Shown here in pieces: positions 11,209 to 22,035 of a stretch of 24,949 nucleotides of DNA. Every line of letters begins with the position of its first letter. The first letter of the stretch is position 1. The DNA lies in the IMG/VR virus record IMGVR_UViG_3300021791_000010, positions 1 through 24,949 of that record; one strand, given 5' to 3'. The notes under the pieces were generated by a model, which saw only the letters and a program-made list of their open reading frames with translations, had not been told where the DNA came from and searched no databases. A program made the translations under genes and the position numbers. This DNA is from a virus. Its lineage: Duplodnaviria; Caudoviricetes.

Positions 11209-12933
11209 ATGGCATCAGGTACTAGCTCAACTACATTTGGAGATGCTTTTGCTAAATTAGCAGACGGCCTTCAGACATATCAGTCAATAAAGGTTGGAAG
11301 TTTTTGGGAATTTCTGCGTGATGTATGGTCACAAAGTTTCGATCATCCTGAGTACTTCAAAGCTTGGCACGTAGGGTTATTGGCAGAAGATATTGAACGC
11401 TGTCTTCAAGAAGGAAAGAACTATGTAGCCGTGTTACCACGGTTTCATTTCAAATCTACCATCTTAGGACATGCATTTAGTGTGTGGCAGCTTTTGAAAT
11501 CCACTAGAGACTGTTCTGTACTGTACCTATCCTATAGTGACCATATGGCTAGGTATCATATTTCGGAGATTAATAAGGCGGTGAATAGAAACCCGCAACT
11601 TAAAGAGTGGATGGTTAATAGGTCACCTAAAGCAGACTATTCATTTAGATATTATATTAAGAATAATCCTATGGAGATTGCCCACGGTGGTCTTTTCTCA
11701 TTTAAACGAGGTATGCATGTTAACGGAGCATTAATTGCAGATGACGTATTGAGAGACCCAGATAACCCATTGAACTTGGGGCAAATTTATAAGGTAGAAG
11801 ACCACTTCCTTACAGAGTCTATGTTCATTCCGTTAAAGGGAGTACCTGTAATAGTACTAGGAACACCAATGATGCCAGGAGACCTCTTGACAAAGCTTCA
11901 AGAGGATGATAGATTTATGAGTAGAACATTACCAGCACTTGACCCTGTACCTGGTAGAAGGGTTTTGATGCCAGAACTGTACAGTGAGGATTGGTTATTA
12001 CAGCAGCAAAAGGCTCGACCAAAGGCATTCGCTTCTGAGTTTTTACTGGTTCCTCATTTATCAACAGAATCGTATTTTGAGGACGAAGATATTCGGAAAT
12101 GTGAAGTAAGATCTCTTAATAGCCATTCTGCATATAAGCCTTATGAGCTTAAAGATACTAGTCAAATATTTGCAGGATTCGATGTAGGTAAGAAGAGGCA
12201 TCCCTCACACTTAGTAATTTTTAGAAGGGATGGTTCACACGTAGAACAGATACATCAATCATGGTTGGATGGGTGGAGTTACTCAGACCAGATTGATTAT
12301 TTAAATCAGGTGGCAGAAAATTTTAATATACAAAGGGGGTACATAGATAATACCAGAGGCGAACTCGAAGATAGAGGATTAAGTCGAGTTTGGCGGTCAA
12401 TGTCATTTACTACAAAGTCTAAGAACACAATGGCACAAGTTTTTGAAAATTATGTGCATTCAGGTAACCTTAGACTATTAGCTGATGAACGTCAACGACA
12501 ACAAATATTGTCAGTTAACAATGAATTGAAGGCTCCTCAAACACCAATGGGTCACGGAGATGCGTTCTTTTCTATATCAATGGCATTGCTAGCGGTATAT
12601 GAAACATCAGTGTACAATATACAATCTATGGGAAACTTAATGGATTGGATGACTGACCTAGATCCTACAGAGCAGAAGAAGAAGGCCGACCCAGCAGCAG
12701 AACTGCAAAGAAAATGGGCAAGGACTTTGACTCACGGGTCAACTATGAAGGATAATGACCCCGCAAATTGGGATGGAAAAACGTGGTCGGAGAGAACTCC
12801 TGAAGAGACAATCGCACATTTGTCTCAAGTACGAGAGAATGCTCCTAATCCAGTATGTTCCGAAAGTTTGTGTAACCCATCATATTGGGTAAAAGAACGC
12901 AATTTATGTCTATATTGTGGCCATAGAGGATAA
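11209..12933 (+). CDS. terL: Terminase large subunit
   Basis: Walker A-like PRFHFKST, Walker B LIADD, coupling motif VLGTP, FASEF, nuclease AGFDVG and HGDAFFS. Confidence 0.92.
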   Translation: MASGTSSTTFGDAFAKLADGLQTYQSIKVGSFWEFLRDVWSQSFDHPEYFKAWHVGLLAEDIERCLQEGKNYVAVLPRFHFKSTILGHAFSVWQLLKSTRDCSVLYLSYSDHMARYHISEINKAVNRNPQLKEWMVNRSPKADYSFRYYIKNNPMEIAHGGLFSFKRGMHVNGALIADDVLRDPDNPLNLGQIYKVEDHFLTESMFIPLKGVPVIVLGTPMMPGDLLTKLQEDDRFMSRTLPALDPVPGRRVLMPELYSEDWLLQQQKARPKAFASEFLLVPHLSTESYFEDEDIRKCEVRSLNSHSAYKPYELKDTSQIFAGFDVGKKRHPSHLVIFRRDGSHVEQIHQSWLDGWSYSDQIDYLNQVAENFNIQRGYIDNTRGELEDRGLSRVWRSMSFTTKSKNTMAQVFENYVHSGNLRLLADERQRQQILSVNNELKAPQTPMGHGDAFFSISMALLAVYETSVYNIQSMGNLMDWMTDLDPTEQKKKADPAAELQRKWARTLTHGSTMKDNDPANWDGKTWSERTPEETIAHLSQVRENAPNPVCSESLCNPSYWVKERNLCLYCGHRG

Positions 12934-12953: not shown

Positions 12954-14903
12954 ATGACGACAACAACTTCAGCAGCAGCATCATATGGTATGACTCAATT
13001 TTCAGAGAATTTACCAGAACCTGTATTATCAACCCAAGCACAGGTTATCTTAACGCACAGATATTTTTTAAAGAATGATGCTGGGGAAACCATTGAAAAT
13101 GGTATAGGGTTATTTAAACGAGTAGCGAAAGCTATTTCAAGTATAGAAAATAACTATATGACTTTACCTGTTGAAGCTGAATTAATAGAGAGCGAGTTTC
13201 TAACCATGATGAAGAGTCTAGAGTTTCTTCCAAACTCGCCCACTCTTATGAATGCGGGTACTTATCAAGGTACTCTGTCGGCATGTTTCGTCCTACCTCT
13301 AGAAGATTCCATGGAAGGAATTATGAAAGCCGCACATGATGCTGCTATGGTGCAGAAATTTGGCGGAGGTACGGGCTTTGCGTTATCCAAAATACGACCT
13401 CATGGAGATAAGATAAAAACCACCCATGGAATTGCGTGTGGCCCAATAGAAGTATTAAAAACACTTTCTAGGGTTTCATCTATGATTACACAAGGGGGGA
13501 AGAGAGATGGGGCGAATATGGCGGTTATGTCAGTGTATCATCCAGATATCCTTGAATTTATTAATTGTAAATCAATTGAGGGAACCATCCATAATTTTAA
13601 CATTTCTGTGGGTGTTGATGATCATTGGATGGAGTGTGTGGAAAATGGTCTCAAGTTTCCTTTAATTAATCCATCAACGAAGCAAATCGTGGGGAACTTA
13701 GACGCAAGAGAGGTCTTTACGAAAATCGTAGAGGGTGCGTGGAAGAACGGTGAACCTGGAATGATTTTTCTTGATCAGATAAATAAGGATAATCATGTTT
13801 CAAAGGAGTATGGGGACATGATTGCTACAAATCCTTGTGGCGAACAACCGCTACTGGGAAATGAGTCTTGTAATTTAGGTTCGATTAACTTGGCAAAATT
13901 TGTTAAAGATGATGCTGCTCCCTATACTTCCGACGTATATTGGAAAGACCAAATTAATTGGGAACGTTTGGAAAAAGTAACCAAACTGTCTACTAGGTTT
14001 TTAGATAATGTTATTGATGCTAATTATTATGCTACCCCTGAGATAGAAGCTATGACAAAAGCGACCCGCAAGATTGGTCTAGGTGTTATGGGATTTGCAG
14101 ATTTGCTTATACAATTACGGATTCCCTATAATTCCGTAGCTGCTAGAGAAGTAGGGGCATATGCTATTTCTAAGATTCGAGATTGGGCTGATGAGGAGTC
14201 CCTCGAATTAGGGGCTAGTAGAGGCACTTTCCCTGCGTGGCAAGAGAGTACGTTTGATAAAGAAGATGAGGCATACAGGAATCATTGTCGATTAACTGTT
14301 GCCCCTACTGGAACGATTTCAATGATCTCCGATACGTCTTCGGGTATTGAGCCAACATTTGCATTGGCATGGAAAAAACAAAACATACTTGAAGGCAAAA
14401 CTTTAAATTATGTAAATCAATATTTTGAAAAGGATGCGAAGAAGTACGGGTTTTATTCAGACGGTTTAATGAATTATTTAGCGAATGGTGGTTCCTTACA
14501 AAAGCATCCCCATATACCAGACTGGGTAAAGAGGGTATATGTAACCGCTCCTGAGATTTCACCCGAAGACCATGTTTTAATGCAGTCCGCATTTCAAAAA
14601 TATGTTGATTCGGGAATTTCTAAGACCATTAATTTTGCTAATCATGCTACCGTTCAGGATGTAGAAGACGCATATTTACTGGCTTGGAAACAACATTGTA
14701 AAGGTATTACCGTGTATAGAGCAGGCAGTCGTGAAAAAGAGGTACTGGTAAAAGGTACAGAGAAAGACACGCAATTAGAGTTCGCTTTGCAGCTTGAGAA
14801 CGAAGAGGATACGTCTAGTTGCTGCGAGAATCCATATATAGTTATGGAATCTGGTTGTGAGACTTGTAAATCTTGTGGATGGAGTGCTTGTGTAATTGCA
14901 TAA
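12954..14903 (+). CDS. nrdJ: Class II (adenosylcobalamin-dependent) ribonucleotide reductase
   Basis: FLPNSPTLMNAG, LSACFV, TNPCGEQPL, CNLGSINL, IGLGVMG, VAPTGTIS, ISKTINF, KGITVYR; C-terminal ESGCETCKSCGWSAC Cys cluster typical of NrdJ; no nrdB in the window. Confidence 0.9.
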   Translation: MTTTTSAAASYGMTQFSENLPEPVLSTQAQVILTHRYFLKNDAGETIENGIGLFKRVAKAISSIENNYMTLPVEAELIESEFLTMMKSLEFLPNSPTLMNAGTYQGTLSACFVLPLEDSMEGIMKAAHDAAMVQKFGGGTGFALSKIRPHGDKIKTTHGIACGPIEVLKTLSRVSSMITQGGKRDGANMAVMSVYHPDILEFINCKSIEGTIHNFNISVGVDDHWMECVENGLKFPLINPSTKQIVGNLDAREVFTKIVEGAWKNGEPGMIFLDQINKDNHVSKEYGDMIATNPCGEQPLLGNESCNLGSINLAKFVKDDAAPYTSDVYWKDQINWERLEKVTKLSTRFLDNVIDANYYATPEIEAMTKATRKIGLGVMGFADLLIQLRIPYNSVAAREVGAYAISKIRDWADEESLELGASRGTFPAWQESTFDKEDEAYRNHCRLTVAPTGTISMISDTSSGIEPTFALAWKKQNILEGKTLNYVNQYFEKDAKKYGFYSDGLMNYLANGGSLQKHPHIPDWVKRVYVTAPEISPEDHVLMQSAFQKYVDSGISKTINFANHATVQDVEDAYLLAWKQHCKGITVYRAGSREKEVLVKGTEKDTQLEFALQLENEEDTSSCCENPYIVMESGCETCKSCGWSACVIA

Positions 14904-14944: not shown

Positions 14945-16258
14945 ATGCGTAAACTATTTACATGGAAAACACTAAGGAATGTTATTAGACGGAGTGTAGG
15001 GTCAGTATCCCTACTAGCAGGTACGTTGGGCTTGGTACTACTTGCCGTAAACCCAGTTCCGTGGGTTGCCTCGTATCTACCGCTTAAGATAAATAGCACG
15101 ACCTTTGGAAGTCTGTTGCTAACAGAAGAATATTTACAGGGTCTCATGACTGCATTTTACACAGACCCTATAGTATGGGGTAGTACGGCAGGTATATCAG
15201 GATTATTGATATTATTAGCTGGGATACTTCTAGTCCGTAGCCCTAAACAAGCGTTGCGGTCATTAGGACGAGGCGTTAAAGCTTCTCCTATGGCGGTTAT
15301 ACGTTCCCCAATCACGTTCTATAGAAAGGTTGTACAAGGTCGAAATTGGTTATTGGCAAAAGTTGAGTATCTTCAGTCTGAAAGTGCTAAATGGAAGACT
15401 ACTTTTAATATTTTGAAATCTCCATACAGCCTACTTCGGGCCGCTGGATTCAGCCCTCAAATGGCCATGGGTGTATTATTCGCTGGTTCGGCTGTTGGTG
15501 GTGGGGTTGCTGTAAACGAAACGATTTTAGCTGACCGAAGTTTTAATCGTGGAGATAGCGGTATCTATGCAGCCTCTCTTGTAGGAAACGGAGCAAACTT
15601 AGATGCTCCTACAGAGTATGTTGAAGGCTCCAACACGCTTAGGATTGACTTAGGTAATACTCCCGTTCGGGAAATCACTATAGAAAATGTTTCCGTAGGA
15701 ACAGTTTTCACAGGTTCTGCCTTACCATCAGGAGAAACCAATGTAGTACAGGTCTCAGGTAATACTATATCTGGTGGCACGAACACACGCCTTGAAATAG
15801 GGCATTTTATCTTTGAAAATTCACGTTGTAAGAAGCTAACCATGACAGACATACAGGCTCATACGATCGTGGTCAAGGGCAATGCCAGCGATGGTCAAAG
15901 TTTGGCCCCTTCACCAGGTACCTCTAGAATGAGAGCTATCGGTGGAGGACATCAACAAGCAGATGCCATGATCACGAATGGCGGTACGTACGACAGGATC
16001 TGGATTCAGGCTCCGTCTTCAGGCGTAAATGGCAAGGTAGGCACCCTGAGATTGAGCAATTTGTACACAAAAGGGGGAGATTGTGTCCTCTCGAAAATGA
16101 ATATAGGAACTCTTGAAATATTATTAAATGAGATCGGAATGGGCGATGGATTCAATACTAAGGAGTTCACGATCGCTACTACAGTTACTGGTGCCAACAT
16201 AACGGTTCAAGACAATGTTGAAGTAACTATAGCGGAACCTGCCACTACTGGACATTAA
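14945..16258 (+). CDS. Membrane-anchored protein with beta-rich C-terminal domain, unknown function
   Basis: Hydrophobic segments near aa 20-37, 76-97 and 173-190; Gly/Thr/Ser/Asn-rich C-terminal half; SD GGGAGGT. Confidence 0.75.
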   Translation: MRKLFTWKTLRNVIRRSVGSVSLLAGTLGLVLLAVNPVPWVASYLPLKINSTTFGSLLLTEEYLQGLMTAFYTDPIVWGSTAGISGLLILLAGILLVRSPKQALRSLGRGVKASPMAVIRSPITFYRKVVQGRNWLLAKVEYLQSESAKWKTTFNILKSPYSLLRAAGFSPQMAMGVLFAGSAVGGGVAVNETILADRSFNRGDSGIYAASLVGNGANLDAPTEYVEGSNTLRIDLGNTPVREITIENVSVGTVFTGSALPSGETNVVQVSGNTISGGTNTRLEIGHFIFENSRCKKLTMTDIQAHTIVVKGNASDGQSLAPSPGTSRMRAIGGGHQQADAMITNGGTYDRIWIQAPSSGVNGKVGTLRLSNLYTKGGDCVLSKMNIGTLEILLNEIGMGDGFNTKEFTIATTVTGANITVQDNVEVTIAEPATTGH

Positions 16259-16280: not shown

Positions 16281-16661
16281 ATGTATGAATATAGAGGTAA
16301 CTTGATAAAGATTATAGATGGTGATACAATAGACGTGGATTTAGAGTTAGGTTTTGATGTTATCTTGAAAAAACAACGTATACGGTTATACGGTATAAAT
16401 ACACCAGAATCACGTACTAGAGACCTTGAGGAAAAAAAATACGGGCTGGCTGCAAAAGCTAGACTAAGGGAACTATTAGAAGCAGCAGACAGTCTAATAA
16501 TCAAAACGGCCATAGATAAAAAGGCCAGAGGAAAATATGGACGAATTTTGGGTACAGTATTTGCGGATGAGACTAACGTTAATGATGTATTGGTTTCCGA
16601 AGGTCACGCAATTGCTTATTACGGCGGGAAAAAGAATACGAACAAATGGTGGAAGGAGTAG
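16281..16661 (+). CDS. Staphylococcal-nuclease (thermonuclease) family protein
   Basis: IIDGDTID, RIRLYGINTPE, GKYGRILG, LVSEGHA motifs. Confidence 0.9.
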   Translation: MYEYRGNLIKIIDGDTIDVDLELGFDVILKKQRIRLYGINTPESRTRDLEEKKYGLAAKARLRELLEAADSLIIKTAIDKKARGKYGRILGTVFADETNVNDVLVSEGHAIAYYGGKKNTNKWWKE

Positions 16662-16664
16662 ATA

Positions 16665-16889
16665 ATGGCAGTAACAATCTACACATCGCTTGGTTGAGGC
16701 CCATGCGTTATGACCAAGTCTTGGTTAAAAACTCAGAATATAGATTTTATTGAAAAACATGTAGAAGATGAAGGTGTTTCTGAAGAGTTGATGTCGTTAG
16801 GGTATAAAGTAACACCAGTAATTATGGTAGACGGAACTGCGATAGTAGGTTATAATACAAGGAAGTTAGCCGAAGCATTAGCTAAATAA
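16665..16889 (+). CDS. nrdH: NrdH/glutaredoxin-like redoxin with in-frame UGA (putative selenoprotein, UGPC active site)
   Basis: SD AAGGAG 16653-16658, ATG 16665; MAVTIYTSLG-(TGA 16695-16697)-GPCVMTKSWLKTQNIDFIEKHVE...LGYKVTPVIMVDGTAIVGYNTRKLAEALAK, TAA 16887-16889. Intact glutaredoxin pattern on both sides of the TGA. Absent from ORF track. Confidence 0.88.
16698..16729 (+). promoter_or_regulatory. Candidate bacterial-type SECIS hairpin
   Basis: UGACCAA (16711-16717) pairs with UUGGUUA (16721-16727), closing a GUC loop whose G lies 20 nt after the UGA. Confidence 0.7.
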
Positions 16890-17400: not shown

Positions 17401-19068
17401 ATGAAACTTGGACAATATTTACCAGAAGTCCCAGCCTTTGCACAACAGATGGCAAATCTAAACAATCAATTAGATATGCTTCAGTTGATGAAAGCGTCAG
17501 GGGAGACTGGACAAGCCCCCACCATTGGGTTAGACCATGTAGTTAATACATGGGTACGCCATCAAATGGCGTACAGACAGCAACTAGTTATGGATTTACA
17601 GACAATTGCTATGTCTGTGGAAGAAATACGGGGGCCTTTAAATCATATTACTAGTGAAGTCTTTCGTAGAGGGTTTGAATGGAAGCCTAATGATTCGGAA
17701 TCTGACGAAGAGCAGTTAGATAAACTAAAAGCATTTATGAAAGATTGTAATGTCTTTGACCAAAGTCTTGAAGAGGTTCTTCGACAGTTCCATTTTGATG
17801 TTAACTCTATTGATGACGGGTTCTTGTACCTCGCAAAGGAGTATAAGGCTGGTCAGGATGGTAAACTGCGCTCTAAAGTACGAGAAATTAGACGCTTAAA
17901 CCCCGCATTGGTTGAATTTGACCTAGACCAACAGGGATTGCCCAAGAATTTCCACTTCTTATGTCCAATTCATAGGGAAGATATACAAGAATCGTCTACA
18001 ACCTGCCCTCAACCCAAGTGTGAGCAGACTATGTTACCTGTAATGTATAAATATTATCATAGGAACAAGCATATTTATTTCTTTGATTCGGAAATTATAC
18101 ATGTTTCTAAGTTTTCTCCATCAGAAACATATGGATGGAGTCCGATTTTAACAGTATTTGAAAAAGCTTTAACATTAATAGGTATGGATAAAAACCTTTA
18201 TAGATATTTCTTTGAACGTAAAATGCCTGCAGCAATGATGATGGTATTTACAGATGACCCTGAAAGTCTTAGAAGGGAACGTGCTAATCTAGCTGCACAA
18301 ACTAGATTAGATCCTAACTTCATCCCAATGGTAGCAGTTTCTGCCAAAAATAATCGTGGACGTGTAGACATGGTACGTCTCTTCCACACACTACAAGAAA
18401 TGGACTACTTACCAGTTCGGGAAGAAATTAGGGAAAGAGTTGCGGCCATGTGGGGAGTAACACCAGCGTGGCAGGGCGCACCAGAAGCATTTGGTGGGCT
18501 ATCAACTCAAACCCAGCAGTTAGTTGTAATGAGTCGTGTGGTTGAAGGTGACCAACGATTGTTCCATGAGAAGGTTTTTCCTGAGCTTTTAGAGGCATTT
18601 GGAATTACTGACTGGACATTATCATTAGCAGTTCCAGAGGAGAAGGCGGAAGCTACTAGAATAAGCTTTGCGCAACAGCGAATTGCAATCGCTAATCAAT
18701 TAAATCAAATGGGCTTCACACTTAAGCTTAAAGAGGGTGGAGTTCTTATGGAGGACGCAATGTTTACGATAGATGGAGAAGCGGTCTCGACTGCTCAGTT
18801 ACAAGGAGAGCAACAAGCTATGGCGTTGGAACAACAAATTCAACAACAAGAAATGCAGGAACAACAGATGGCACAACAGCAGGAGGCCATGGCTGCGCCA
18901 CCACCTGAAGAGGCCCCTGAAGATGAGCCTGAAGAAGAGGGCGAGGACGACTTTGACGAGGTGGCTATGACAAAAGCTATACATAGTTATCTGGATTCAT
19001 TGGATGAAAAAGACATAGATATTGACCCAGACACCGATGAACCAATTGATGAACCACTTTTAGAGTAG
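17401..19068 (+). CDS. Portal protein
   Basis: EIRRLNP, EIIHVSKFSP...YGWSPI, YFFERKMP, REEIRERVAAMWGVTP segments resemble HK97-type portals; Gln-rich and acidic C-terminal tail; follows terminase block. Confidence 0.88.
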   Translation: MKLGQYLPEVPAFAQQMANLNNQLDMLQLMKASGETGQAPTIGLDHVVNTWVRHQMAYRQQLVMDLQTIAMSVEEIRGPLNHITSEVFRRGFEWKPNDSESDEEQLDKLKAFMKDCNVFDQSLEEVLRQFHFDVNSIDDGFLYLAKEYKAGQDGKLRSKVREIRRLNPALVEFDLDQQGLPKNFHFLCPIHREDIQESSTTCPQPKCEQTMLPVMYKYYHRNKHIYFFDSEIIHVSKFSPSETYGWSPILTVFEKALTLIGMDKNLYRYFFERKMPAAMMMVFTDDPESLRRERANLAAQTRLDPNFIPMVAVSAKNNRGRVDMVRLFHTLQEMDYLPVREEIRERVAAMWGVTPAWQGAPEAFGGLSTQTQQLVVMSRVVEGDQRLFHEKVFPELLEAFGITDWTLSLAVPEEKAEATRISFAQQRIAIANQLNQMGFTLKLKEGGVLMEDAMFTIDGEAVSTAQLQGEQQAMALEQQIQQQEMQEQQMAQQQEAMAAPPPEEAPEDEPEEEGEDDFDEVAMTKAIHSYLDSLDEKDIDIDPDTDEPIDEPLLE

Positions 19069-19077
19069 GACTATGCA

Positions 19078-20811
19078 ATGACCATGATGAACCAAGGCCC
19101 GCAAGACGCAGCCCCTGTAAAAAGAATGCAACTTCCTGCACCACGAAGATTGTATTTAACAGGCAGTGATCTTAAAGATGCGACTGAAGCTGGACTGGTA
19201 ACGTATGAAGGTACTCTAGGTGGTACGTATGTGGACAGAAATGCTCACTGGCATCAAAGTCATAAGAAAGAAAATCCTAGCCAAACAATAACCTATAATG
19301 GTAACAAGATTGCTAATATGCATCCTGTTCCGAAGCATGGGCCAAATCTAGTAGAGTTTACAAATGGGGAACGGGGACTGGAAAATGACCGTCCAGTAGG
19401 TGAAGACGGAAAAAAGCTTTCAATTGCTAAAGATGATAAGGGTGGCCATAAGATAATAAAAAAGAATATGGCCACTACCTTGAATGGGGAGAAAGGAATA
19501 CCTAACGACGCTACCGATGTTTTTGTAGCTGGAAACCCGACACAAGGTGTACAAGCAACTTTTAAATATGCTACTGGTCTACCTGGAATCATTTATACAA
19601 AGGAGGCAAAAGCCGCAGTAGATGACCAACGATGGGATTCCCATAGAGAGGCGACCCCACATTTAAGAAAAGCTATAAATGCGTTGAATAGAATGGACGT
19701 TAGTGAAATGAAGGATTCTGAAAAAGTATTAAACCTTATTGCAATAATGGGATTTAGACACGGACAAGCAGGAGAGGCCCGTATACATGAGGACGGCAAT
19801 CCTACAGGAGTTGGATGTTTGACTTTCCTACGAAATAATATTGAAGTAGATGGCAATAAAACAACCTTTAAGTTTAGAGCAAAAAAAGACATACCCTTAG
19901 AGTTCAGTACTCGTAATTCTAGAGTATCGGCCATAGTTAACTCCCTTGATTTGGATAATAAGGAACCTACTGACAGGCTTTTTAATACAACGACAGAGAC
20001 TAATAATAGTCTTCTTAAAAAATTAGCTGGTCATGATACTGGTGTACATGTTATGGCATTGCGTAGATTAAAGGCTGGGGATATCGCCACATCCGAAATA
20101 AAGAAACGGGGTTTAAGTGAATCTGGGCCACTGAGTAAGAAAGAGTATAGTAAGCTAAGAAAGGAAGTTAGTATGTCCGTAGGTAAAAAATTGGGGCATA
20201 GAAGGTCAAAACGTTTTAAGGGGGGTACAACTAAAAAAGGAGTCTACGAAGATGAGGGTAGTACATCGCTTAAAAATTATATAGACCCAAATAAATGGAA
20301 ACATCTTACACCTTCCGATGTTCCGTTACAAAAGAATCAAGGGGCATATCCCCAACCCGATTGGCATGGTAAGGGGCCAAATGAGGAACGAGATATTGAC
20401 GAGTGGGCTGAGGATAGACGGCGTAAGGGAGAAAATAAGCAATGGGGAATTAAAGGATTGGCGGGAAGACCCCCTAAAGGAGTTAATAAGAGAATCTTGA
20501 AAGCTCCTAAAACATGGATAGAAGCTATAATGGAACAAGGTTTCGTAGCACCCTTGATTAAACAAGTCACACCTGATGGTAGACAGATATGGTTTTTAGA
20601 AAATGGGACTGATTATATAGCGAATTTTGGTTTGGGAGGAAATGCTTTTATAGAGAAGGCTGTTTTTAAGCCTACACTAAGAAACCCTTCTATTTCCTAC
20701 GCTCCATCTCAATCTAATAGAAAGCCTAGAAAAAATGATGAGGAGCCAAACGTTCAAGGAGAGCCTTATACGGGAGATGTTATAGATGATGATGAGGCAC
20801 AAGGACTATAA
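19078..20811 (+). CDS. Head-region multidomain protein containing a type IB DNA topoisomerase domain
   Basis: IPNDATDVFV / GVQATF..ATG...IY / GFRHG / GCLTF / FKFRAKK / ALRR / LGH / KNYIDP match the order of bacterial and poxviral TopIB motifs. Confidence 0.8.
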   Translation: MTMMNQGPQDAAPVKRMQLPAPRRLYLTGSDLKDATEAGLVTYEGTLGGTYVDRNAHWHQSHKKENPSQTITYNGNKIANMHPVPKHGPNLVEFTNGERGLENDRPVGEDGKKLSIAKDDKGGHKIIKKNMATTLNGEKGIPNDATDVFVAGNPTQGVQATFKYATGLPGIIYTKEAKAAVDDQRWDSHREATPHLRKAINALNRMDVSEMKDSEKVLNLIAIMGFRHGQAGEARIHEDGNPTGVGCLTFLRNNIEVDGNKTTFKFRAKKDIPLEFSTRNSRVSAIVNSLDLDNKEPTDRLFNTTTETNNSLLKKLAGHDTGVHVMALRRLKAGDIATSEIKKRGLSESGPLSKKEYSKLRKEVSMSVGKKLGHRRSKRFKGGTTKKGVYEDEGSTSLKNYIDPNKWKHLTPSDVPLQKNQGAYPQPDWHGKGPNEERDIDEWAEDRRRKGENKQWGIKGLAGRPPKGVNKRILKAPKTWIEAIMEQGFVAPLIKQVTPDGRQIWFLENGTDYIANFGLGGNAFIEKAVFKPTLRNPSISYAPSQSNRKPRKNDEEPNVQGEPYTGDVIDDDEAQGL

Positions 20812-20823
20812 GGGAGGACAATT

Positions 20824-22035
20824 ATGCCAGCTAAATCTGAAAAACAAAGACGTTTTATGGGAGCAGAACTAGCTCGTAAACGGGCGGGTGAACAAACACG
20901 CACTGATATGACCGAAGACGAACTAGAAGATTTTGCTTCTAAACAATCTGTAAATAAAATAATGGTTGGAGGAATACAAGAAGGTATTAGACCTAAGCTT
21001 CCTGATCATCAGTTACCAAGGAAGAAGGGACATGCTTCAGAGTATCCTCCACAACATGGTGGGATGTTAGGCCCACATAGAGAACTCAAAAAGCAACATC
21101 AGAAGTTCCTTAAGTTTGATGTAGCCTACGGGCCAGCCTCTCCTGAGCAGATAACGAAGGGTGAGAAATGTGATACATGTCTACATTGGAAAGATGGGGC
21201 AGCGTGTCATATAGTCTTTGGATTTATTCACGCTGATGATTGGTGTAATAAGTGGGAACAGAATGATTTACTCCAGAAAGCTATACCTGAGAAACCTGTA
21301 TCAGCGGTACAGGCATTAAAAGAAAAAACTAAGAAGGGGGCAACGAAACATCCTGCTCTGCACTCACATAGAGATGACCATCCAACCCATTTACATATAC
21401 AAGTACATAAAGAAGATGGCGGTGGAGATGGTGGCGGGGCCTTAGCTGGTGGAGGAACGGTATTTACTTCTACCAATTCTGGAGTTTTTACTCCTACCCA
21501 TGGAGGAAATGAAAAACCTAAAAAAAAGAAAACGGGTATTGAAAGATTGGGTCAATTTATTACAGACAATTCGCCTGAAAAAAAGATGTTAAAAGCTCCC
21601 TTGTATGCCTTGACAGAGTTATTAAATGAGGTTAGACTAGAGTTGCGAAAGGACGATGAGAAGAGACAGACTCCACCAAAGTCTAAACCTACTCTAGATG
21701 ATCCTCCTCAAGTAGTGGAAAGGGAAGCTAATATACCCGATGACCCAAATCTTGTTGCGGGACAAAAGATGACCGAAAAGGAGCAGAAGCGTATTATGAA
21801 TGAAGATAAGAATAAGGATAGTGGAGACCCACATACATTGTTATTGGATGAAGAAGATGAAGAGGACGTAACAAAAAAGGAGTGGGGAAGTGGCCCTGCT
21901 AGTGTGGACTCATTGCGTCAAACTGGAGATAAAGATAAATTAGAGTCTGATGAAGAATCAAATGAGCCTGAGGAAGAAGAGTTAACGGATAATACAAAAG
22001 ACCCACTTATAAAACGCATACTTAAGGATTTGTAG
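20824..22035 (+). CDS. Head-region modular protein: DUF3008-like N-terminus, HiPIP-like 4-Cys domain, charged low-complexity remainder
   Basis: MPAKSEKQRRFMGAELARKR...MTEDELEDFASK; Y...C-x2-C-x8-C-x11-WC-x2-W; SD AGGGAGG. Confidence 0.7.
   Translation: MPAKSEKQRRFMGAELARKRAGEQTRTDMTEDELEDFASKQSVNKIMVGGIQEGIRPKLPDHQLPRKKGHASEYPPQHGGMLGPHRELKKQHQKFLKFDVAYGPASPEQITKGEKCDTCLHWKDGAACHIVFGFIHADDWCNKWEQNDLLQKAIPEKPVSAVQALKEKTKKGATKHPALHSHRDDHPTHLHIQVHKEDGGGDGGGALAGGGTVFTSTNSGVFTPTHGGNEKPKKKKTGIERLGQFITDNSPEKKMLKAPLYALTELLNEVRLELRKDDEKRQTPPKSKPTLDDPPQVVEREANIPDDPNLVAGQKMTEKEQKRIMNEDKNKDSGDPHTLLLDEEDEEDVTKKEWGSGPASVDSLRQTGDKDKLESDEESNEPEEEELTDNTKDPLIKRILKDL

Follow-up and report, generated by a model that had tools for sequence, protein, structure and literature searches.

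NrdH-redoxins serve the class Ib ribonucleotide reductase NrdEF, and class II reductases are recycled by redoxins via C-terminal cysteines. The closest described relative of the protein reported here is the glutaredoxin cGrx1 of Clostridium oremlandii (PDB 7C10/7C12), which is natively a selenoprotein according to the accessible part of PMC7642778. Sec-glutaredoxin is also listed among the prokaryotic selenoprotein families in the available text of PMC13188914, which describes the established bacterial pathway in which selenocysteine (Sec) is inserted by means of SelB and Sec-tRNA. Among viruses, the accessible portion of PMC8310308 names poxvirus cases only, the glutathione peroxidases (GPx family) of molluscum contagiosum and fowlpox viruses, and these are the same cases that the original prediction for this locus had named. 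There, as in the case described below, the virus bears the selenoprotein gene and the recoding is left to the host, with the difference that the poxvirus hosts and SECIS are eukaryotic, whereas the phage case involves a bacterial SECIS, a glutaredoxin fold, many lineages and a host that is presumably bacterial. The protein family and the recoding are thus known from bacteria, and their use by a bacteriophage is the new part.

A search of the literature, mostly outside subscription journals, did not turn up a phage selenoprotein in any publication, and queries by exact phrase gave 0 matches in the text that could be searched. The word "phage" is absent from the main text of PMC13188914, PMC2398784, PMC1088965 and PMC13326102, and occurs in that of PMC5029168 only within a species name. 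For selenoprotein families other than three metalloproteins, the available part of PMC9402790 reports no or very few viral sequences; because the wording is "lack or very few", a few viral selenoprotein reads may have passed there without comment. The 12 of its 17 supplements that were searched gave no virus match.

Could a tailed phage carry such a gene and leave its decoding to the host? The window, by which we mean the whole stretch of DNA analysed here, is a linear virus record of 24,949 nt (32% complete) with genes for DnaB, primase, PolA, RecA, RuvC, terminase, a class II ribonucleotide reductase, a nuclease and a portal protein. Between the nuclease gene and a 148-aa gene of unknown function, we found a complete redoxin gene that runs from ATG at 16665 to TAA at 16887–16889, is preceded by a Shine-Dalgarno (SD)-like word and is interrupted solely by the in-frame TGA at codon 11, as had been predicted; GGC CCA TGC (G-P-C14) follows directly 3' of this TGA (Table 1). 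An SD-like word also lies 5' of the upstream start in 66 of the 72 Sec-form genes that have enough flank. Contigs from the runs of two different studies (X1 record 5 and X3 record 10) span the TGA with 0 differences, an agreement at the assembly level in which one of the two contigs may be the window's own source.

Table 1. Positions of the redoxin gene, its elements and the neighbouring phage genes in the window.
Feature	Position	Strand	Remarks
Class II (B12-dependent) ribonucleotide reductase NrdJ	12954..14903	+	TIGR02504 654 bits, cut-off 400; C-terminal CxxC pairs
Terminase large subunit	11209..12933	+	No Pfam match; syntenic relative G001 matches PHROG terminase
Portal protein	17401..19068	+	Weak Pfam Phage_portal match; G001 relative matches PHROG portal
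Glutaredoxin/NrdH-like redoxin gene, predicted selenoprotein, U-G-P-C active site	16665..16889	+	74 codons
Shine-Dalgarno-like AGGAG	16654..16658	+	6 nt 5' of the start codon, within the terminal codons of the preceding nuclease gene
In-frame TGA at codon 11, predicted to encode selenocysteine	16695..16697	+	One alignment column in 73 of 73 TGA forms
Cys14, predicted resolving cysteine of UxxC	16704..16706	+	Kept in 78 of 78 proteins, for most of which the search pattern itself demanded Cys14
Bacterial SECIS-type hairpin	16711..16727	+	7-bp stem UGACCAA/UUGGUUA, GUC loop 16718–16720, 20 nt past the UGA
Cis-Pro segment (T50-P51) of the thioredoxin fold	16812..16817	+	Invariant in alignment A1

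The gene had been assigned to a gap in the track of open reading frames. The full gene does lie there, but the gap is not empty, since it is occupied by a 59-aa ORF from ATG 16710, and it is exactly this ORF that the protein database stores (P0002). Stubs of 58–60 residues that lack the active site account for 15 of the 21 database hits of the redoxin, which agrees with the expectation that gene callers would miss such phage genes. The truncation of the redoxin gene by gene callers is a systematic annotation error.

The 74-residue read-through protein is glutaredoxin-like in sequence and predicted fold. It matches Pfam Glutaredoxin (PF00462) with 43.4 bits (cut-off 22.9, E 4e-11), its predicted structure adopts the glutaredoxin fold (pLDDT 95.6), and the thioredoxin fold, the [U/C]xxC site and the cis-Pro segment are all present, the last of these 3' of the TGA, where the hallmarks of the family had originally been read. 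The model superimposes on cGrx1 (7C10) with a TM score of 0.90–0.91, an rmsd of about 1 Å and 36–37% identity; among proteins of solved structure, cGrx1 is likewise the closest in sequence (E 1e-21), and the TGA codon aligns with its catalytic position. As in bacterial-type selenoproteins, an in-frame UGA stands opposite the catalytic Cys of homologues within a conserved open frame. The two proteins are alike in size, fold, UxxC site and the position of the bacterial in-frame SECIS. On the other hand, the phage redoxin comes from tailed phages without sel genes, its active site is UGPC compared with U(C)PXC in cGrx1, and its gene is associated with a class II reductase and not with MsrA.

The other half of the original label, NrdH, fared less well. 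The score against the NCBIfam NrdH-redoxin family (TIGR02194) was 48.8 bits, below the cut-off of 85.75, so the strict name is unsupported, and the neighbour is the class II NrdJ instead of the class Ib nrdIEF genes to which NrdH is linked. Nevertheless, the protein resembles NrdH-redoxins and the phage redoxins found beside ribonucleotide reductases (TIGR02194; phrog_22) in its length of about 75 residues, in its location near a reductase gene and in its thioredoxin fold (TM 0.82–0.86 to 1H75, 4FIW, 4HS1 and 4F2I), and differs from them in the predicted replacement of Cys by Sec and in its class II partner. With the glutaredoxin-like selenoproteins of the Uxx-star type (NF041212 and relatives), it shares the glutaredoxin fold and Sec at the first position, but it has a full UxxC and a long C-terminal part; the window protein scored 36.1 bits against this family, below the cut-off of 66, and all 17 alignment members match it weakly. 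In some redoxin variants (L032, L142, L250 and L255), 12 inserted residues follow the cis-Pro strand, and L032 has URPC in place of UGPC.

We then compared the codon at position 11 among relatives. In an anchored set of 83 sequences (80 loci fetched via the portal protein, 2 via the redoxin, and the window), 27 contained the redoxin gene, 23 with TGA and 4 with TGT; counted as distinct genes, these were 16 TGA and 2 TGT of 18. Because protein patterns demand Cys and hence miss TGA forms, wider searches were made with a DNA pattern in which the third base of the codon was free. It returned 67 viral loci, 64 of them with a match to the redoxin profile, and at least 120 metagenome loci (31 of 64 parts), at least 55 of them in the clade; the remaining metagenome loci, either distant CxxC redoxins or matches by chance, did not enter the codon tally. 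Actinophage-like CQPC relatives turned up in the same scans. Pooling the clade members with a profile score of at least 95 gave 78 distinct proteins, with 73 TGA, 3 TGT, 2 TGC and 0 TGG at position 11, which is the mixture of TGA and TGY expected of a Sec codon in the original prediction. The ratio of 73:5 overstates the share of Sec, since the pattern overlooks some Cys forms, such as the P0180 cluster (YTSDICAPC, 15 members), and the anchored ratio is the fairer one for the same reason.

The TGA forms are 37–72% identical to the window protein and fall into 47 lineages below 80% identity, and the five Cys proteins come from about three lineages. The pN/pS ratio was 0.35 on the 5' side of the TGA and 0.28 on the 3' side (108 close pairs), and the substitution pattern in these alignments indicates that purifying selection acts on both sides, as a readable codon would require under the selection test proposed at the outset. 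A tree on 76 columns, with weakly supported deep forks, needs at least three changes between Cys and Sec, outgroups included, and it places L191 and the L044 group, both Cys forms, among Sec forms.

The hairpin 3' of the TGA meets the loop, stem and spacing rules for bacterial SECIS elements given in the available text of PMC13188914. Scored with the loop and spacing rules of that text and our own stem-energy cut of −3 kcal/mol, a hairpin was present in 72 of the 73 Sec forms and in 0 of the 5 Cys forms, compared with 6–7% of synonymously recoded sequences; at a control site, 4 of 73 had one. The split between Sec and Cys forms was stable for stem-energy cuts from −2 to −6. The published bSECIS rule of an MFE of −7.5 kcal/mol or lower gives a less clear picture: the window lies right at the limit (−7.6), and 53–60 of the 73 Sec forms but also 1 of the 5 Cys forms are below it, the count varying with the length folded. 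The single-sequence fold of the window region is no better than that of shuffles (z about 0), and the evidence for the hairpin is comparative. A search of the window for Rfam families found none.

This comparative evidence has several parts. The pS is 0.135 within the hairpin and 0.47 downstream, and at the hairpin site 27 of the 29 Thr codons of Sec forms are ACC, compared with 18 of 225 elsewhere. Across 30 sequences of the main type, 96% of the stem cells are paired; the outer stem pair is U-A in 14 and C-G in 13 of them, a covariation that 0 of 500 shuffles equalled, whose count is inflated by relatedness because it concerns a single pair, the state of which goes with the encoded residue (Met vs. 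Ala). In the Cys forms L044 and L115, the peptide ATKSWL is kept with other codons and the stem is lost, and in L191 (TGC), whose sisters bear Sec, the 5' arm is kept and the 3' arm is broken. In a second subgroup (13 of 73) the stem differs, and its loop, GUG, lies 23 nt past the UGA. In these alignments, the presence of the hairpin tracks that of the TGA, which adds evidence beyond the earlier reading of the sequence.

The phage context is provided by the window, itself a virus record, and by G001, a complete syntenic relative (85,063 nt, terminal repeats, 100% complete) that carries a UGPC redoxin and, among the 54 of its 75 ORFs scanned, genes for a major head protein, a protease, a portal, a terminase and tail proteins; with capsid, portal, terminase and tail genes, the group belongs to the tailed bacteriophages. 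Searches for selA and selB in five records, the window included, for selD in four (G001–G003 and G006), and for a tRNA-Sec over the cut-off in five gave no match. A weak tRNA-Sec match in G001 turned out to be tRNA-Tyr; this tRNA-Tyr (GTA; C1 about 20763–20850, L159:763–850) is the sole tRNA of G001 and a possible marker of the host. The absence of sel genes noted for the window thus extends to a complete relative, which is why we infer that the Sec machinery is that of the host.

Grouping the 60 loci that span 1.5 kb or more by shared flanking proteins gave a main group of 46 and seven small ones, two of which include IMG/VR records with different gene sets, G006 among them. This grouping suggests that the redoxin gene has been transferred between phage groups, and it suggests rather than proves it because groups may be split by loci that are short. 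On inspection by eye, the 18 neighbourhoods listed included none of chromosomal appearance. The gene is accessory in the phage group, being present at this position in 24 of the 64 portal-linked loci with room for it.

Several further features of these genomes were observed. Among 50,697 phage records, the window portal matches only those of the haloarchaeal tailed viruses HVTV-1 and HCTV-1/5/16 (27–30% identity); unlike these matches, the replication genes (DnaB, DnaG, PolA and RecA) and a sigma factor of G001 are of bacterial type. Behind the portal gene, a 577-aa gene (19078–20811) has no Pfam or NCBIfam match, and the middle part of its product, judged by eye, resembles a type IB topoisomerase or a domain of the tyrosine-recombinase fold, in divergent form; L239:2-526 looks similar to this product. 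A 437-aa protein with hydrophobic N-terminal segments (14945–16258), conserved in the clade, is encoded between NrdJ and the redoxin, and its look-alikes in the Atlas are only unnamed viral clusters with scores under 0.9. The loci L097, L108, L136, L144 and L156 (G006, 36 kb) belong to phages of a separate group, whose Sec redoxin gene has the hairpin of the second type; a reductase match is lacking there, and a 787-aa DNA polymerase with an N-terminal extension (fused) and a Sak4-like gene occur. In five records, 888 TGA read-through frames were screened by eye, and a second convincing sense-strand selenoprotein was not found; the other matches looked like off-frame or antisense shadows.

How would such a gene be read and what would its product do? 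By analogy with bacterial Sec biology, the SelB-GTP-Sec-tRNA complex of the host would bind the GU-loop hairpin and insert Sec11; without this insertion, translation would stop after 10 codons. Sec11 would then attack a disulfide of the substrate and Cys14 would resolve it, after which the host thioredoxin reductase or a low-molecular thiol would recycle the redoxin. Judging from the gene neighbourhood, the substrate is probably the C-terminal cysteine pair of NrdJ, and the redoxin would then support the making of DNA precursors. A selenium-containing protein is very likely because both the UGA at the catalytic site and the hairpin are conserved, and with high confidence we take the conserved UGA to be read as Sec.

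This reading has to be weighed against three others that would do without Sec. The frame might be a nonsense pseudogene or the TGA a sequencing artefact, and it is true that this phage uses TGA as an ordinary stop codon (the stop codons of the 31 listed window genes are TAA in 15, TAG in 11 and TGA in 5) and that the agreement on the codon is at the contig level; nonetheless, the contigs of two studies do agree, the same TGA recurs in full-length frames across lineages, with pN/pS well below 1 on either side, a conserved SD and a hairpin tied to it, whereas a decaying frame confined to one genome would have been expected. The conservation across lineages refutes this reading in practice, and its probability is negligible. 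It is also very unlikely that an alternative code or leaky read-through places Trp, Cys or Gly at the UGA. At the protein level, some database proteins do have Trp at the site (P0016 and the P0019 and P0178 clusters), as others have Arg (P0027) or Ser (P0188), but no TGG occurs among the 78 genes at the DNA level, and the Trp-bearing proteins lie on contigs no longer than 2.5 kb and have no Met just after the site, which would fit a gene caller picking code 4 on short contigs. When the 31 window genes were aligned to relatives (184,775 codons), the only in-frame stops were 23 TGA codons, all at the redoxin site, and opposite Trp there were 2535 TGG and 0 TGA, in line with the view that the code is unchanged genome-wide; moreover, the natural alternative to the TGA is TGY with loss of the hairpin. 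Finally, the true product might be the 59-aa ORF from Met16, with the upstream part serving as a leader peptide. A Met lies 4–6 codons past the TGA in 57 of the 73 Sec forms, and in the window a GAGG stands 5' of ATG 16710; on the other hand, the remaining 16 forms have no such Met, codons 2–10 are under constraint and hold strand 1 of the fold, and the short product would be without both active-site residues, while the Cys relatives are full length. We regard this as highly improbable.

A more serious alternative accepts Sec decoding and concerns the substrate: the redoxin might mainly serve virion disulfides, oxidative-stress defence or a host reductase. For NrdJ speaks the arrangement of the genes, which lie on the same strand at most 2.6 kb apart in all 29 loci that hold both, with the redoxin at most 240 nt from the end of the NrdJ match in 8 of them, directly behind it; the redoxin is near NrdJ in the separate L102/L197 neighbourhood as well. 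Against this stand G006 (36 kb, 85% complete), which has the Sec redoxin gene next to a DNA polymerase gene and no reductase match, the accessory nature of the redoxin, and its absence from G003 (83% complete), which bears NrdJ. In addition, cGrx1 has been proposed to reduce MsrA (accessible part of PMC7642778). Since the G006 redoxin travels without a detected reductase, another substrate is possible, though we consider it the less likely case, and NrdJ as the main substrate moderately probable. For the combined proposal that the SelB and tRNA-Sec of the host, together with the hairpin, decode a Sec redoxin that likely re-reduces the neighbouring NrdJ, our confidence is strong.

Which bacteria might supply the machinery? 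The runs that hold this stretch are seawater and marine plankton metagenomes. In 201 genomes from the phylum to which G009 (a Micrococcus record) belongs, NrdJ identity reached at most 51%, compared with 65–77% in phage relatives, and at most 47% in the 25 plasmid records and 41% in the 20 phage records listed. A scan of the genome collection with the Cys-only pattern matched only distant cellular redoxins. Selenoprotein-rich lineages include Dehalococcoidia and UBA8248, according to the available text of PMC13326102, and Actinomarina, according to that of bioRxiv 10.64898/2026.04.03.716425; these three are candidate hosts only. Separately, two Planctomycetota MAGs (L084 and L085; about 7400–8250 in L084) have three adjoining genes for small glutaredoxins, of which one is UPPC with TGA and the other two have Cys (CPPC and CGPC), a trio that is a cellular cluster of Sec and Cys paralogues.

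Judged from its conservation, the redoxin is real, widespread among phages and very probably decoded with Sec. If so, UGA recoding via the bacterial Sec pathway extends to phages, in dozens of divergent lineages. The redoxin clade offers a natural contrast in which Sec and Cys are paired with the presence and absence of a hairpin, and the compact 7-bp hairpin and its natural variants are a ready test set for the rules of SelB recognition. The reading also predicts that the hosts possess selA, selB, selC and selD, which narrows the search for the hosts of an abundant uncultured marine group, and selenium would join the known cobalamin link in viral nucleotide metabolism. A wider picture is possible, although we hold it only tentatively: an overlooked marine phage selenoproteome, in which the gene moved among unrelated phage groups that infect selenoprotein-rich bacteria, at least two SECIS hairpins were acquired, reversion to Cys with decay of the hairpin took place more than once, and dNTP supply became tied to the selenium of the host. 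When charged Sec-tRNA is lacking, UGA ends translation, and the dNTP supply of the phage would therefore hang on host selenium; if this is true, selenium would be a limiting nutrient for infections, and the redoxin gene would be a marker of Sec-using hosts.
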